DNA of 64,000 nt from Candidatus Krumholzibacteriia bacterium (lineage in GTDB: Bacteria > Krumholzibacteriota > Krumholzibacteriia > JAJRXK01), in NCBI GenBank assembly GCA_041484665.1, contig JBGPIA010000001.1:832001-896000 (forward strand), read 5' to 3'. Every line of letters starts with the position of its first letter. Positions within the stretch are counted from its first letter, which is position 1. The notes beneath the pieces were generated by a model that saw nothing but the letters and a program-made list of their open reading frames with translations, was not told the origin of the DNA and ran no database searches. The translations under genes were made by a program, and so were the position numbers. Shown one piece after another: positions 33,129-44,609 of the stretch.

Positions 33129-33911
33129 TTAGTCGCCCTGCTGCTGCAGTATGGCTTCCAGCCTGCGCTGCTCCTTGCCCCGCAGGTGGCCGTGGAATGC
33201 CTGCAGCGGACCGATCATCGAGTAGATCAGCCCGGAGATCCCGATCCACGGCCCGGGTAGGACGCTGGCGAGCAGGATCGAGGCCAGCCCCACACCCGTC
33301 ATGATCAGGCTGTAGCGGATCTCTGCTCGCGCCACCAGCGCCTCCAGCGCGTTGAGCTGCAGCCGCGCGCGGCTGCGCCAGGCGTGCAGGTAGAGCAGGG
33401 CGAACAGCAAGTAGATGGAGGAGAAGCCCGCGCTGTAGATCCACATCAGCGTGCGCACCTGGGAGCCGTCGATCACGTGTAGCACGGACCCGTCCGGCTG
33501 CATCACGTTCGCTGGAAAGCCGGCGAAGATCCACCGAAACAGGAACTTGAGGGGATAGACGTAGAGCAGCACCAGGAACAGGATGGCGAAATTGAGCAGC
33601 ATCGTCCATCCGTCGCTCATGGCGAACCGGCGGAAGAACGCGTAGTGCTCTCGCCAGAGCATCACCAGGCTCGCGAAGCAGACCGCGAATGCCAGCGTCT
33701 CGCGCATCACCGCCATGAGCTGGTCGAAGCTGTGCGGCACCTCGAGCGAGACCACCAGCAGGGTGACGGCGAACGCGAAGACTGCATCGCTGAACGTCTC
33801 CAGCCGGGGCACGTCGGCACCCCTCCAGCGCAGCGTCAACCCGCCCCGGTCCGCGTTGCCAGCGTGCGTTGCCAAGAGCACCTCCCGGTTGGACGCCCCG
33901 CGCGCGGCCAC
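33129..33911 (-). CDS. TMEM175-family (DUF1211) potassium channel
   Basis: RLETFSDAVFAFAVTLLV signature; about 6 TMs. Confidence 0.85.
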   Translation of the reverse strand: MAARGASNREVLLATHAGNADRGGLTLRWRGADVPRLETFSDAVFAFAVTLLVVSLEVPHSFDQLMAVMRETLAFAVCFASLVMLWREHYAFFRRFAMSDGWTMLLNFAILFLVLLYVYPLKFLFRWIFAGFPANVMQPDGSVLHVIDGSQVRTLMWIYSAGFSSIYLLFALLYLHAWRSRARLQLNALEALVARAEIRYSLIMTGVGLASILLASVLPGPWIGISGLIYSMIGPLQAFHGHLRGKEQRRLEAILQQQGD

Positions 33912-34090: not shown

Positions 34091-34120
34091 TTGACAGCGC
34101 CGCAGCAGCGTCTCTAGCAT
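34091..34120 (+). promoter_or_regulatory. Sigma70-like promoter, probably giving a leaderless BMC-T mRNA
   Basis: TTGACA-N18-TAGCAT with ATG (34128) 7 nt after the -10 box; no Shine-Dalgarno. Confidence 0.6.
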
Positions 34121-34127
34121 GGTCGCC

Positions 34128-34751
34128 ATGATCGAGCTGCGCACCTTCGCCTTCCTGGACCAGCTTCAGCCCCAGCTGGCGGGGCAAATCGGGACGACCT
34201 CGCGCGGCTTTATGCCCACCCCAGGCGTCGCCTCGCTATGGGTGGAGATCGCGCCCGGAATCAGCATCCACCGCCTGCTCGACTCCGCGCTGAAGGCCAC
34301 CAGCTGCCAGCCGGCCACCATCGCGGTCGAACGCGCCTTCGGCGTGCTGGAGGTGCACCATGCCGACCAAGGGCAGGTGCGCCAGGCCGGCGCCGCGATC
34401 CTGATGGGCATCGAGCGCAGCGAATCCGACCGCGCCAAACCGCGATTGGTCTCCTCGCAGATCATCCGCTCCGTCGAGTCCTATCACACCCAGCTCATCA
34501 ACCGAACGCGCTACGGATCGATGATCCTGCCCGGCCAGTCGCTGTACATCCTGGAAACCGAGCCGGCCGCCTACTGCATGCTGGCCGCCAATGAGGCCGA
34601 GAAGGCCGCGCAGATCATGCTGGTGGACGTGATCCCGATCGGCGCCTACGGGCGCTTGTACCTGGCCGGCCCGGAGGCCCAGATCGACGCGGCCAAGGAG
34701 GCGGCCGAGCGGGCGCTCGCCTCGCTCAGCGGGCGCAGCTCCGAGGAATAA
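34128..34751 (+). CDS. Bacterial microcompartment tandem-domain shell protein (CcmP/BMC-T double-stacking type)
   Basis: [70 protein letters not shown]. Confidence 0.92.
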
Positions 34752-39990: not shown

Positions 39991-41709
39991 TCAGCGCTGG
40001 TGCGGCTCGGCCGCAAAAGGCTCCTCGCCCTCCGGGATCTCCCAGATCCGTCCGGCCCCCAGCGGCCCGACCGCCTGGGCGCGGCCTGACGGCCAGCGGA
40101 TCTCGATTGAATCGACGGTCGCCGCGTCGCCCAGACCGAAATGCAGCGGCAGCGGCATGCTGCTGCCGGCAACCTGCGCCGGCCAGTGCTGGCGCACCTG
40201 CCGCGCGCCCCCGGCGTAGAGTGCGACGCGAGTCCCGAAGGCCTCCGGATTGCTGCCCGGCCCGCCGCTCAGCGCCAGCTCGATCCAGCCCCGCGGGGCA
40301 AGATCGTTGCGCAGCAGCCGGGCACCCCCCGGACCCGTGGCGTCGCCGTGGCCTCCTTGCAGGAACAGCAGATCGAGGTCGCCATCGCCGTCCCAGTCGA
40401 ACGCCAGCGCGCCCTGCGACACTCCTGGCAGCGCGCGCTCCAGCCCCCACGCGCGGCTGACGTCCTCGAACGTTCCATCGCCACGATTGCGCAGCGCGAC
40501 GCTGGCGCGACCGTGTGAGGCGTCCTCGCGGCGCACCACCAGCAGGTCGAGGTGGCCATCGTTGTCGAGGTCCGCAGCCACCGCGGCGGTGCCGATGCCA
40601 TCGAGCTCCGCGCCGCTGACGGCCGCGCTCTCCCGGAACGCCGGCCCGTCGCGCGCGGCCCGCGCGCCTTGGATCCCATCCGCCCGGGGAGTGACTCCCA
40701 GCAGCAGCCGATTGTGGCGCTGCGGGAACGCGGGATCGCCGACGCCGTCGCCGTAGACGAGGTACAGGTCCAGTCGGCCGTCTCCATCGAAATCGCCCCA
40801 TACGCCGCCCGCCGGCCCGGGCACGTAGACGGCGGGCGGCAGCAGCTCGGGCGCCCGGCGCCACGTGCCGCGGCCGGTCCCGAGGTACAGCACGAGCGGC
40901 GGCCGGCCGACGCCCAGCAGGTCGATGGCGCCGTTCTCGTCGAAATCCGCAGGGAACACCTCGACCAGGTACTGCTCGCGCACGCGCGGGCCAAAGAGCG
41001 TGTCGGCGGGAGGCGGTGTGCGGGCGAGCAGCTCCTCGTCCACGGGGTCGTGCCCTGGCAAGCGCTGCGGCTGGTCGAGGAATCCGCCGCCGGTCTGCGC
41101 CACGAACAGGCGCAGCGGGCTGCGGAAGTTCAGCACCAGCAGGTCGAGCTGCGGATCGCCCGCCAGGTCCGCGAAGAGTGCGCCGCGGCCGCGCCCGAAG
41201 CGGTCCTGCACGCGCAGGGCGGCGGCCCGCTCCGTCGCACCGGCGGACGAGCGCAGCCAAAGCTGATTGGGTCCCTCGCCATGCCCCCGGTGCGCGCCCG
41301 CGACCAGATAGAGATCGGCGAAACCGTCGCGGTCGAGGTCTGCGACGGCGGTAGCATGGTGGTCCTCGATCATGCCCGGCGGCCAGAAGCCCCGCGTGCG
41401 CTCGAAGCGCAGCCCGGGCCGGCACAGGTACGCATTCGGCAACGACGCGTGGCGCCCCAGCAGGAGATCCATCCGCCCGTCACGATCGAGGTCGAGCGCC
41501 GTGCACCCGGAGGTCTTGCCAGTCACGGGCAGGCCGCTGCGCAGCGTGACGTCGATGAAGCGCTTCGCGCTGCTGGGGCCCGCGGGACCGCGCGCGGCGC
41601 TGCCCAGGAGGATGACCACCAGCAGTACCAGCATCAGCGGCTGCGCCCACGGAAGCCTCCGCGCGATGGAGCGACGGCAGACGCCCGCCACGTGTGTCGG
41701 TGCAGTCAC
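39991..41709 (-). CDS. CRTAC1/ASPIC-UnbV FG-GAP repeat secreted protein
   Basis: Repeated DxDxDGxxDL motifs; C-terminal LHFGLGDAATVDSIEIRWPSG; GTGA overlap with the aldolase stop. Confidence 0.87.
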   Translation of the reverse strand: MTAPTHVAGVCRRSIARRLPWAQPLMLVLLVVILLGSAARGPAGPSSAKRFIDVTLRSGLPVTGKTSGCTALDLDRDGRMDLLLGRHASLPNAYLCRPGLRFERTRGFWPPGMIEDHHATAVADLDRDGFADLYLVAGAHRGHGEGPNQLWLRSSAGATERAAALRVQDRFGRGRGALFADLAGDPQLDLLVLNFRSPLRLFVAQTGGGFLDQPQRLPGHDPVDEELLARTPPPADTLFGPRVREQYLVEVFPADFDENGAIDLLGVGRPPLVLYLGTGRGTWRRAPELLPPAVYVPGPAGGVWGDFDGDGRLDLYLVYGDGVGDPAFPQRHNRLLLGVTPRADGIQGARAARDGPAFRESAAVSGAELDGIGTAAVAADLDNDGHLDLLVVRREDASHGRASVALRNRGDGTFEDVSRAWGLERALPGVSQGALAFDWDGDGDLDLLFLQGGHGDATGPGGARLLRNDLAPRGWIELALSGGPGSNPEAFGTRVALYAGGARQVRQHWPAQVAGSSMPLPLHFGLGDAATVDSIEIRWPSGRAQAVGPLGAGRIWEIPEGEEPFAAEPHQR

Positions 41710-42497
41710 CGCTCGCCCAGGGCGCGGGCGATCTCCTCGGCGATGATGCGCGCCACGTCGGCGTTGTGCGGCTCGCCGGGTCCAGCGGGGACCGGCGGGG
41801 TCCGCTCGGCGGCCGCTTCCTCCGCCGTCTTGCAGCTGGGCGGCGTGCCACTCAGGCCGTACATGGCACGTCCGGACTGCAGCCTGTCCACCTGCTGTTG
41901 CGAGAGCGGCTGCGGTCCGCCCAGCACCATCGACAGCAACGTGATGCGCGCCACGTGATCGACGGTCTCGAGCTTGTAGTACGCGTCGAGCACGTCCTTG
42001 CCCACGGCGACCACTCCGTGATTGCGCAGCAGGATCGCGTCGTGGTCGACGATCAGCTCGCAAACCACGGAGCCCACCTCGGCGGTCCCGGGTGTCGCGT
42101 ACCGGGTCACGGGCACTGCACCCAGGCTCACCACGACCTCCGGCAGCAGGCACAGGTCGAGGTCGCGCCCAGCGGTGGCGAAGGCCGTGGCGAACGGCGG
42201 GTGGCCATGGACGATGGCGCGCACATCGGGGCGCGCAGCGTAGATGGCCAGGTGCATCCCCAGCTCGGTGCTTGGGCGCGCGTCGCCCACCGGGCGCCCC
42301 TGCAGATCCGCCAGCGCGAGGTCCTCCGGCTGCAGGAAGCCCTTGCAGACGCCCGCCGGCGTGGCCAGCACCCAGTCGTCCCCCACGCGCGCGCTGACGT
42401 TTCCCTCCAGCCCGATCACCAGGCGGAAGCGGTACATGCGGCTGCCCACCTCGACGATGTCGCGGCGGGCGGCTTCCAGCGAAAGAGAGGTCGTCAT
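41706..42497 (-). CDS. Class II aldolase/adducin family protein with a probable C-terminal BMC encapsulation peptide
   Basis: EGNVSAR, TP, STELGMH, HGHPP, LRNHG; Pro-rich linker then amphipathic helix ADVARIIAEEIARAL. Confidence 0.9.
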   Translation of the reverse strand: MTTSLSLEAARRDIVEVGSRMYRFRLVIGLEGNVSARVGDDWVLATPAGVCKGFLQPEDLALADLQGRPVGDARPSTELGMHLAIYAARPDVRAIVHGHPPFATAFATAGRDLDLCLLPEVVVSLGAVPVTRYATPGTAEVGSVVCELIVDHDAILLRNHGVVAVGKDVLDAYYKLETVDHVARITLLSMVLGGPQPLSQQQVDRLQSGRAMYGLSGTPPSCKTAEEAAAERTPPVPAGPGEPHNADVARIIAEEIARALGER

Positions 42498-42647: not shown

Positions 42648-43631
42648 CTACGGCACGAGGACCGCTGCGCCCACCACGCTCCCAGCACGCAGCGCGGCGA
42701 GGGCCTGCTGCGCGTGCTCCAGCGGGTACCCATGCACCGTCACGCGTACGGGCACAGCGGGGGCGAGCCGGAAGAACTCCTCCCCATCGCGCCGTGTCAG
42801 ATTGGCCACCGAGCGCACCACGCGCTCCCCCCAGAGGATCTCGTAGGGAAACGACGGGATGTCGCTCATGTGGATGCCGGCGCAGACGACCGTGCCACCC
42901 TTCCGCACGGCACGCAGCGCGGCCGGCACCAGCGCTCCAACCGGCGCGAAGAGGATCGCGGCGTCGAGGGGTTCGGGCGGCGCGGAGTCGGAGCCGCCCG
43001 CCCACTGTGAGCCCAGCGCGCGGGCGAAGCACTGCCCCTTTGCGTCACCGGGTTTGGTGAATGCGAACACGCGCCGGCCCTGGTAGCGCGCGATCTGGGC
43101 GATGATGTGCGCCGCCGCCCCGAAGCCGTAGAGCCCAAGGCGTTGCGCGTCCCCGGCGGCGATCAGCGACCGATAGCCGATCAGACCCGCGCACAACAGC
43201 GGCGCGGCCTCCAGGTCCGAGTAGCCCGCCGGGAGCCCAAAGCAGAAGCGCTCGTCGGCGACCGCGTACTCGGCGTAGCCCCCGTCGAGGTCGTAGCCGG
43301 TGAAGCGAGCGCGGTCACAGAGATTCTCGCGGCCGGCCCGGCAGTGCTGGCATTCGCCGCAGCTCCACCCCAACCACGGCACGCCCACGCGATCGCCAAG
43401 TGACCAGCGCCGCGCTCCGGGGCCGGTCTCCAGCACGGTTCCGACGATCTCATGCCCGGGAATCAACGGCAGCTTGGGCTGCGGGAGCTCCCCGTCGATG
43501 ATATGCAGGTCGGTGCGACACACGGCGCAGGCGTGCACGCGCAGCAGCACCTGCCCATCACCCGGCCGCGGGTCGGCCACCTGCGCCGCGCGTAAGGGAA
43601 CGCGCGGACTCTCGAGCAGCATCGCTCGCAT
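42648..43631 (-). CDS. Zinc-dependent alcohol dehydrogenase family protein
   Basis: CRTDLH, GHE, CGECQHC...ENLC, PLLCAGLIGYR, GFGAAAH. Confidence 0.93.
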   Translation of the reverse strand: MRAMLLESPRVPLRAAQVADPRPGDGQVLLRVHACAVCRTDLHIIDGELPQPKLPLIPGHEIVGTVLETGPGARRWSLGDRVGVPWLGWSCGECQHCRAGRENLCDRARFTGYDLDGGYAEYAVADERFCFGLPAGYSDLEAAPLLCAGLIGYRSLIAAGDAQRLGLYGFGAAAHIIAQIARYQGRRVFAFTKPGDAKGQCFARALGSQWAGGSDSAPPEPLDAAILFAPVGALVPAALRAVRKGGTVVCAGIHMSDIPSFPYEILWGERVVRSVANLTRRDGEEFFRLAPAVPVRVTVHGYPLEHAQQALAALRAGSVVGAAVLVP

Positions 43632-43802: not shown

Positions 43803-44609
43803 TCATCGTGCCCGCCCCGTGGCGCGGGCGCGCGCCGTGCGGGCTCCCTGGCGGGCGGCGCGCAGCGGCGGCGGCGTGCGCGTGGCGCGCGTGAGCGCCA
43901 GCACCGCCACCACCGCAACATCGGGGTCCGTGCGCCAGGCGGCGTGGACCGCCAGCGGACGCGTGCCGGCGCGCGTGCGCACCCAGCAGCCCACGATCTC
44001 GCCGCCGATGCGCAGCGGGCTGCCGGAGCCGCGTTCTTCGGCGGGCAGGCCGCCAAGGGCGAGCAGTGGGCGGTTCGTGATGCCGATGGACGGCACACCC
44101 AGCTGCGCGCCCAGGTGCAGAGCGAGCCCGGCGCGGCGGGGGTGGTCGCGGCCCGTCGCGTTCACGAGCAGCAGATCCGCAACGCAGGGCAGCGCGCGGA
44201 CCGCGGCCTCCAGCAACGGGCCCTCGCGCAGCGCGAGCAGCCCGGCGCCGTACGATGCGCCCGCGGCGCCGCGGACCACGGCCACGGCGACGATCCTGCC
44301 CGCGACCACCAGCGCGGCGGCAGCCCAGGCCGGATCGCCTGGCGATCCCGGCCCACCACCGCCGCGCGGGAAGCAGACGAAACAGCCGGCCACCGCGCCC
44401 AGGCTTTCCGCGTCCAGCTCCGGCGAGACAGGGGGCACCAAGCCTGCATCCGCGGGACCGGGGCGCGCCGTGCCGACGCCTTTGGCCGGGTGCCAGAGCG
44501 GCGGCGACTGCGCCCCCAGCTGCTGCTGCACCGCCATCAGCTCCTGCGGCGTCGCAGGCCAAGGCTGCACGAGCGCCTCCCCTGGTCCGTCCTCCGCGGG
44601 CCACTTCAT
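43803..44609 (-). CDS. nfi: Endonuclease V homolog with substituted catalytic residues
   Basis: WPATPQEL..QQQL, SYGAGLLALRE, HPRRAGLALHLG, PSIG, RTPPPLRAAR; the catalytic Asp positions read F, N and R. Start uncertain. Confidence 0.75.
   Translation of the reverse strand: MKWPAEDGPGEALVQPWPATPQELMAVQQQLGAQSPPLWHPAKGVGTARPGPADAGLVPPVSPELDAESLGAVAGCFVCFPRGGGGPGSPGDPAWAAAALVVAGRIVAVAVVRGAAGASYGAGLLALREGPLLEAAVRALPCVADLLLVNATGRDHPRRAGLALHLGAQLGVPSIGITNRPLLALGGLPAEERGSGSPLRIGGEIVGCWVRTRAGTRPLAVHAAWRTDPDVAVVAVLALTRATRTPPPLRAARQGARTARARATGRAR

Follow-up and report, generated by a model that had tools for sequence, protein, structure and literature searches.

A class II aldolase with a putative C-terminal encapsulation peptide as probable cargo of a dispersed, MIC7-like microcompartment in a Krumholzibacteriia genome

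Introduction

The bacterial microcompartment (BMC) catalogue of Sutter et al. 2021 describes MIC7 as a locus of an aldehyde dehydrogenase (AldDH) and shell proteins with a satellite BMC-Tdp, occurring in Latescibacteria and Eisenbacteria, with an AldDH closest to that of SPU3 (PMC8217296). According to the same source, the Eisenbacteria locus tags share this gene order and add one BMC-H (PMC8217296). For HO, it reports a pfam00596 aldolase in a satellite locus, about one third of these enzymes having a possible C-terminal encapsulation peptide (EP), together with a remote DeoC bearing an EP-like extension (PMC8217296). The catalogue assigns no signature enzyme to either MIC7 or HO, although structural and engineering work on these organelles uses the HO shell, of unknown native function, as its chief model (PMC8217296). 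The core of SPU compartments has been described as deoxyribose-phosphate aldolase plus AldDH, and their ribose-phosphate isomerase (RPI) as having little or no activity on ribose-5-phosphate (R5P) and possibly serving packing (PMC11585597). We analysed a stretch of 64,000 nucleotides from a Candidatus Krumholzibacteriia bacterium (GCA_041484665.1, contig JBGPIA010000001.1, positions 832,001 to 896,000), hereafter the window, and a class II aldolase gene within it whose product ends in a conserved amphipathic helix. The lineage is likely uncultured, as a sequence-only reading of the window had supposed, and Candidatus Krumholzibacteria is the label borne by the nearest homologues that have a name. 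Judged from sequence comparisons, the aldolase very probably belongs to the cargo of a dispersed compartment that is MIC7-like and related to SPU3; its substrate can be proposed far more tentatively.

The aldolase and its C-terminal helix

The aldolase gene is the sole PF00596 gene found in the genome, which is 93.65% complete. Its features in window coordinates are:

41706..42497, reverse strand: class II aldolase gene, 263 amino acids, no internal stops.
41937..42461, reverse strand: Aldolase_II domain, residues 13-187 (PF00596, E 1.2e-48), with G32-N33, S76-T77-E78 and the ligands H97, H99 and H160.
41832..41834, reverse strand: Cys222, where the linker begins; it and Cys116 are both invariant in 25/25 close homologues.
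41766..41831, reverse strand: Pro/Ala-rich linker of variable sequence (residues 223-244), where tailed homologues average 0.16 identity.
41715..41765, reverse strand: conserved amphipathic helix, residues 245-261, a putative EP by prediction and conservation.

The domain match, the Glu/three-His metal site and the fold all place the enzyme in the PF00596 family. The core is intact, as had been claimed from the sequence, with the motifs STE (76-78), HGHP (97-100) and NHG (159-161) all present. E78, H97, H99 and H160 align with E73, H92, H94 and H155 of E. coli FucA, presumably with the roles assigned to those residues in FucA, and they are unchanged in 75/75 aligned homologues. No cut-off was reached among the 25 NCBIfam families listed and no equivalog was matched; the top scores came from the AraD-like PRK06557, then OtnC, a methanogen FucA and a haloarchaeal ribulose-1-phosphate aldolase. 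The AlphaFold2 model (mean pLDDT 94.7) gave Foldseek matches to YgbL, DrdA and FucA with TM (target) values of 0.88-0.92 and near-equal scores; YgbL/OtnC was the top PDB match and DrdA (6BTG) the second among the structural matches. C116 and C222 form a possible disulfide or metal site. A CxxC stands at the linker position corresponding to Cys222 in family f3 and in PVM homologues.

Beyond the core, the protein ends in residues 245-263, NADVARIIAEEIARALGER. The Pro/Ala linker and the terminal amphipathic helix noticed from the sequence alone were both borne out: residues 223-245 hold five Pro and five Ala among 23, and AlphaFold2 places a helix at 245-261. The hydrophobic moment of the tail is 0.66. 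The linker is modelled at lower confidence (pLDDT 76-81 for residues 231-250) and includes another short helix at 225-231. We compared identities in a 25-row alignment, in which 21 rows are tailed and the other four end shortly past C222. Measured against the query, the 21 tailed close homologues average 0.60 identity over the core and 0.57 over the terminal helix, with 0.16 across the linker between them; 17 of the 21 keep the motif [LIV]A[RED][IV][IV]AEE[IVL][AV]R. An EP has been defined as an amphipathic terminal helix of 15-20 amino acids on a poorly conserved linker (PMC8217296), and the aldolase tail corresponds to this definition in both its helix and the contrast in conservation between linker and helix.

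The sequence pattern of an EP by itself is weak evidence, and by that measure the helix stands out only moderately. A home-made EP profile, trained on 38 putative EPs from AldDH, DeoC and RpiB of relatives, placed the aldolase tail 39th among 3751 C-termini (top 1%) and 54th among all 7502 termini of the genome, and the EP of the genome's own AldDH 58th. A strict EP regular expression caught DeoC and missed the aldolase itself. No EP-like extension was seen on MtnA or the purine nucleoside phosphorylases (PNPs) of the genome. The genome-wide profile scan for further tagged cargo is not used as support because its top matches were unrelated proteins, which we take to be peptidase-like, aspartate kinase-like, acyl-CoA dehydrogenase-like and GTP cyclohydrolase-like.

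Shell genes elsewhere in the genome

The aldolase had been predicted to be cargo of a microcompartment with scattered genes, encoded outside the main BMC operon. Searches of the genome agree with this prediction, as no shell gene adjoins the aldolase gene, the shell locus lies on another contig, and BMC-H, BMC-T and three BMC-P genes were found together with AldDH. This support from shell genes is joined by the tail distribution described below. The shell genes are:

C2:52645-56171: shell locus BMC-H, BMC-P, AldDH (with an N-terminal helix), BMC-Ts, BMC-P, BMC-P, from PF00936/PF03319 searches.
Window 34119-34751, forward strand: stand-alone BMC-Tdp gene, a satellite of the C2 compartment.

Among natural PDB sequences, BMC-H matches HO-5815 best and BMC-Tdp matches HO-5816 best, so the suggested link to Haliangium proved to be a close one. 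The BMC-Tdp gene lies 7 kb from the aldolase gene. We treat this proximity as chance and rejected a functional linkage on its basis, since in relatives the two genes are on different contigs or far apart. The phosphotransacylase PduL was not found in the genome. A gene with a pterin-binding domain (PF00809; C2:51462-52181) stands just before the shell operon and is there in only some relatives. Together with the tagged DeoC and RpiB described below, the compartment looks like a MIC7-like dispersed SPU3-type organelle.

Distribution of the tail in relatives and metagenomes

We searched 155 genomes of the phylum, of which 99 matched the query aldolase and 86 matched BMC-H. The 67 aldolases examined comprise 66 of these 99 and that of G036; the remainder were mostly further family-f2 genomes and weak matches. 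A long tail was defined as at least 85 residues past the third His, ending in a helix, and each genome received its layout, on BMC-H identity and DeoC position, before any new tail had been read. BMC genes occur in 28/40 relatives and follow family lines. The MIC7-like layout reads glmU, H, P, AldDH, Ts, P, P, HU, and was confirmed directly in all genomes assigned to it. The SPU3-like layout has an RpiB-DeoC fusion and Tdp, followed by H-P-AldDH-Ts-P-P as in the MIC7-like layout; DeoC was within about 2 kb of BMC-H in 35/39 of these genomes, the other four being cut by contig ends or having no DeoC match.

The long tail was present in 18/18 aldolases of MIC7-layout genomes, in 0/39 of SPU3-layout genomes and in 0/10 of genomes without a BMC-H match. 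The tail was thus absent from all ten homologues examined in genomes without a detected BMC-H; seven of the ten are distant (32-39% identity). In a tree of 66 cores, at least four changes of tail state were needed, and 3/3 independent pairs were concordant with layout. Within one genus and one common gene neighbourhood, G003, of MIC7 layout, has the tail, whereas in the SPU3-layout genomes G005 and G007 the protein is cut after the Cys. Read-through of the stop codon in G005/G007 was rejected because no helix is encoded beyond the TGA. The two layouts were never seen together, yet both occur within this genus, which suggests replacement of one locus by the other.

The metagenome set consisted of the best 80 of 297 loci, and tails were counted on 79, one having been dropped as open-ended. 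Shell genes adjoin 32/59 long-tailed versus 0/20 short-tailed homologues, and in loci of at least 6 kb they stand beside 21/29 versus 0/16; all 32 shell-adjacent homologues are therefore long-tailed. The Fisher value for these loci is overstated because of near-duplicates among them. In several loci, the tagged aldolase sits inside an operon of the order Tdp-H-P-AldDH-PduS-Ts or PduS-Ts-P-P, where PduS is our presumed label. The loci L225, L229, L230, L239, L242, L205 and L254 contain operons that combine the tagged aldolase, a PduS-like gene and Ts, and neither DeoC nor RpiB occurs in their available DNA. A scan of genome contigs returned only four distant loci.

Other tagged enzymes and neighbouring genes

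Two further enzymes with EP-like helices are encoded in nucleoside operons away from the shell locus:

C3:6912-7772: DeoC (TIGR00126 over cut-off) with an N-terminal amphipathic EP-like helix, between cdd (cytidine deaminase) and the thymidine phosphorylase gene, in a nucleoside-catabolism operon spanning C3:5588-8182.
C15:114759-118430: operon rpiB-dNK-ADA-PNP, headed by a second, SPU-type RpiB with an N-terminal EP-like helix; dNK (deoxynucleoside kinase-like) and ADA (adenosine deaminase-like) are labels that we presume.

In the tagged RpiB, DGAG replaces CGSG, which puts Asp at the position of the catalytic Cys as in SPU RPIs, and its start lies upstream of simple gene calls. The housekeeping RpiB, which adjoins transaldolase, has no EP-like helix. 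Tagged DeoC and RpiB in nucleoside operons recur in relatives, and the DeoC of the BMC-free genomes G022 and G027 has no extension. The genome thus encodes the EP-bearing DeoC and RpiB of SPU compartments, neither of them inside the shell locus (C3 and C15 versus C2). DeoC, having a tag of its own, is a better candidate for the signature enzyme than the class II aldolase. The phosphopentomutase DeoB was not found in the genome, though DeoA, DeoC and PNPs are present; three genes with phosphomutase motifs (C2:651353, C5:63893 and C10:80279) are candidates for this missing step.

Directly upstream of the aldolase gene lies a gene for a Zn-dependent alcohol dehydrogenase (TIGR02822; window 42648-43631, reverse strand). 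It was rejected as a partner of the aldolase, as it is not adjacent in relatives and occurs in only 3/80 metagenome loci. The window also has a TMEM175-family channel gene (33129-33911, reverse strand) and an endonuclease V-like gene (43803-44609, reverse strand). A scan for promoters and terminators found nothing. Among the homologues are apparent tandem two-domain class II aldolases of 423-458 amino acids (P0034, P0053, P0060, P0067, P0069, P0072, P0079, P0093 and P0111).

Substrate candidates

Neither the tree nor the fold was informative about the substrate. A FastTree tree with modest support placed the query in a large group with aldolases of PVM and ACI loci, apart from E. coli FucA, Ald2, OtnC and AraD. 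The functional analogy with PVM compartments drawn in the sequence-only reading did not hold up, since no FGGY kinase, fucose isomerase (FucI) or PduL was found in the query genome. The 19 MIC7 relatives, including the single-contig G031, gave only two FGGY matches over cut-off, both glycerol kinases. Fucose or rhamnose chemistry is unlikely here, as no FucK/RhaB-type kinase was found in the 20 MIC7 genomes; it is likely the job of some distant members of the tree group. An OtnC role was rejected because OtnK was not found in the genome, and MtnB identity because the score was 68.8 bits against a cut-off of 137.

MtnA is present in the query genome (TIGR00512 over cut-off) and is the only ketose-1-phosphate source identified in it. 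It has no canonical continuation, because MtnB and ARD are missing: ARD was absent in 41/41 genomes, and the query genome has no second PF00596 gene that could be MtnB (MtnC was not searched). The mtnA genes of G014 and G019 each have a class II aldolase gene next to them, one without a tail. The pairing of MtnA with a class II aldolase, which converts 5-deoxyribose-1-phosphate into dihydroxyacetone phosphate (DHAP) and acetaldehyde, is established (PMC6079011, PMC10986504).

Discussion

We propose that the conserved C-terminal helix loads the aldolase into a MIC7-type microcompartment. Within this dispersed SPU3-type organelle, DeoC would release acetaldehyde from 2-deoxyribose-5-phosphate, and the acylating AldDH would convert it to acetyl-CoA. 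MtnA would make a nucleoside-derived pentulose-1-phosphate, most likely 5-deoxyribulose-1-phosphate, which the class II aldolase would split into DHAP and a short aldehyde. The aldolase may thus act as a second, accessory source of aldehyde, namely acetaldehyde from 5'-deoxyadenosine; methylthio- or glycolaldehyde, from methylthioadenosine (MTA) or ribonucleosides, would be alternative products. Acetaldehyde, the product expected of 5-deoxyribulose-1-phosphate, is what AldDH would already receive from DeoC. Given encapsulation, such a substrate seems to us close to an even call, falling just short of it. The whole reading, in which an encapsulated aldolase acts on an MtnA-made pentulose-1-phosphate that we infer by exclusion, is a tentative one. 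The aldolase is probably accessory rather than the compartment's signature enzyme because DeoC is the better candidate, and because the MIC7-layout genomes G004 and G021 have no PF00596 gene at all.

The absence of the aldolase from these two genomes is one of several observations that weigh against the proposal. As regards the tail, many clear non-cargo proteins outrank it on the EP profile, so the score alone is not diagnostic, and the association of tail and layout comprises only three independent contrasts (sign test p 0.25). The 39 SPU3-layout genomes combine a compartment with a tailless homologue, and the enzyme therefore evidently works outside the shell. As regards the substrate, mtnA does not stand beside the aldolase gene in the query genome, nor beside any of the 80 metagenome homologues, and there is no synteny support in the query's own clade. 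The mtnA-adjacent enzymes of G014 and G019 are only 33-34% identical to the query and sit on a long branch, and MtnA occurs in 39/41 genomes, including seven without a PF00596 gene. No MTA phosphorylase or nucleosidase was found in the genome, where both PF01048 genes are PNPs of the inosine/guanosine type (MtnK was not searched in the genome); the MtnA route would accordingly seem to need prior deamination. Of the reference sequences, E. coli Ald2 comes out as one of the weakest (30% identity, E 9e-19), the YgbL, DrdA and FucA structures score about equally, and Thr43, Tyr113 and Phe131 of FucA are Ala, Leu and Pro in the query, which makes its specificity unreadable from known enzymes. Of three PfkB genes in the genome, two are HldE and ThiD and the third is a kinase of no assigned type. 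FucI-like and FucK-like genes stand beside 6/80 and 5/80 metagenome homologues.

The enzyme might instead be cytosolic and its tail a helix for oligomerisation or partner binding, or else vestigial. About 1% of C-termini in the genome reach the score of the tail, the aldolase gene is unlinked to the main locus, its proximity to BMC-Tdp is not conserved, and the independent contrasts are few. We nevertheless consider this improbable, since the helix is conserved like the core across a divergent linker, the tail is lost in SPU3-layout G005/G007 and kept in G003 of the same genus, and every shell-adjacent metagenome homologue is long-tailed. Moreover, C-terminal EPs on the PF00596 family have been reported for ACI, MUF2, MUF3, SPU5 and some HO loci (PMC8217296). 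Of the features expected of an EP, the conserved amphipathic tail and its confinement to BMC genomes were observed, while the score on the home-made profile proved undiagnostic when taken alone.

If the aldolase is cargo, as we hold very probable, it could still have another substrate or role, such as acting on the product of the SPU-type RpiB, condensing DHAP with an aldehyde, catalysing an epimerase or decarboxylase reaction known for this fold, or serving mainly to pack the core. This is a serious possibility, even if we would not call it probable: the wall of the active site differs from both FucA and Ald2, YgbL/OtnC was the top PDB and second NCBIfam match with no equivalog cut-off reached among the 25 families listed, relatives have no conserved metabolic neighbours around the aldolase gene, and a packing role has been suggested for the nearly inactive SPU RPI (PMC11585597). 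A purely structural role is, however, argued against by the invariant catalytic and metal residues, and the missing OtnK and the lack of a pentulose kinase to feed an AraD-type reaction count against others of these options. Encapsulated chemistry of the PVM/MIC4 kind, in which L-fuculose- or L-rhamnulose-1-phosphate gives DHAP and lactaldehyde, would draw on the nearest references being ACI (47%) and PVM (35-40%) aldolases, on tailed homologues of other phyla in BMC operons with PduL and AckA, on FucI- or FucK-like genes in 7/21 tailed-homologue loci with an AldDH match, and on the many homologues carrying the automatic name 'L-fuculose-phosphate aldolase'. It is nonetheless very improbable in this organism, given the missing FGGY kinase, FucI and PduL, the same lack of FucK/RhaB-type kinases in its MIC7 relatives, and an AldDH whose identity to its counterparts reaches 47-50% in Tdp/PduS-type loci but only 38-43% in fucose-type loci.

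Tagged pfam00596 aldolases, including those of satellite loci, are already known for HO, MUF2, MUF3, SPU5 and ACI. In the catalogue text consulted (PMC8217296, figures aside), we found no tagged class II aldolase listed for MIC7. Our literature search found no coupling of EP tag and locus layout, the search for MIC7 being weak because the name is spelled out only in the catalogue supplements; nor did it find a DHAP-shunt role inside a microcompartment or a link of DrdA or Ald2 to EPs or BMCs. The analysis thereby adds a third tagged enzyme to the likely cargo of MIC7-like compartments, speaks against fucose/rhamnose chemistry in 20 genomes and leaves a short, testable panel of substrates. It also describes a natural targeting experiment, in which the tag of syntenic orthologues is retained or lost in step with the compartment layout of their genome. 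Should the guess at the substrate fail, the finding would shrink to one more EP-tagged satellite aldolase of an ordinary kind. More speculatively, and in our estimate rather unlikely, the aldehyde-releasing step of the DHAP shunt would take place inside a microcompartment, and one dispersed organelle would collect acetaldehyde both from 2-deoxyribose (DNA) and from 5-deoxyribose (radical-SAM waste); the same substrate might then account for the tagged but unassigned class II aldolases in the HO and SPU5 compartments and their kin, the Haliangium model shell among them.

Comparison with known systems

The aldolases of PVM and ACI loci share with the query the same broad tree group, a Cys-containing linker and a C-terminal helix. 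In contrast to their setting, the query genome has no PduL and no fucose or rhamnose kinases (rhamnose isomerase and acetate kinase were not searched), and the aldolase gene lies outside the shell operon. DrdA of Bacillus thuringiensis (6BTD/6BTG) and Ald2 of E. coli ATCC 25922 have the same fold and catalytic residues, and the presence of MtnA without MtnB or MtnD in the query genome resembles the DHAP shunt. They differ in that identity is about 30%, the query gene is not clustered with mtnA or mtnK, and no MtnP or Pfs was found in the genome.

With HO, the query genome shares one BMC-H, a BMC-P triplet, Ts, Tdp and an AldDH with an N-terminal EP, as well as a pfam00596 aldolase and a tagged DeoC away from the main locus (PMC8217296). 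It has one Tdp where HO has two, all three BMC-P genes are in the main locus, and the aldolase has no BMC-P gene beside it; the tree references did not include the HO aldolase. The likeness to MIC7 as catalogued lies in a main locus of BMC-H, BMC-P, AldDH with an N-terminal EP, BMC-Ts and two more BMC-P, in the satellite BMC-Tdp, and in a lineage near Latescibacteria and Eisenbacteria. AldDH is the only enzyme that the catalogue gives for MIC7, whereas the query genome adds a tagged class II aldolase, DeoC and RpiB elsewhere. The catalogue places the MIC7 Tdp near the clade containing CsoS1D; the best PDB match of the query Tdp is HO-5816, the HO main-locus Tdp that the catalogue also places there, and CcmP scores above CsoS1D. 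A second, specialised BMC-H was not found in the query genome, and we file the compartment as MIC7-like.

The likeness to SPU3 and SPU5 consists of DeoC and an Asp-type RpiB with EPs, AldDH, the BMC-P triplet, Tdp and Ts (PMC8217296, PMC11585597), and SPU5 further has a class II aldolase with a C-terminal EP. For the SPU class II aldolase, Dwyer et al. 2024 suggest synthesis of fructose-1,6-bisphosphate, without testing it (PMC11585597). The relatives of SPU3 layout have the same order H-P-AldDH-Ts-P-P as the query locus, and their aldolase is tailless; in the query genome, DeoC, RpiB and Tdp lie outside the locus. PF00596 enzymes have the FucA/AraD fold and not that of fructose-1,6-bisphosphate aldolases. 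The compartment described here thus probably works like SPU3, yet by its locus it is no member of SPU3.

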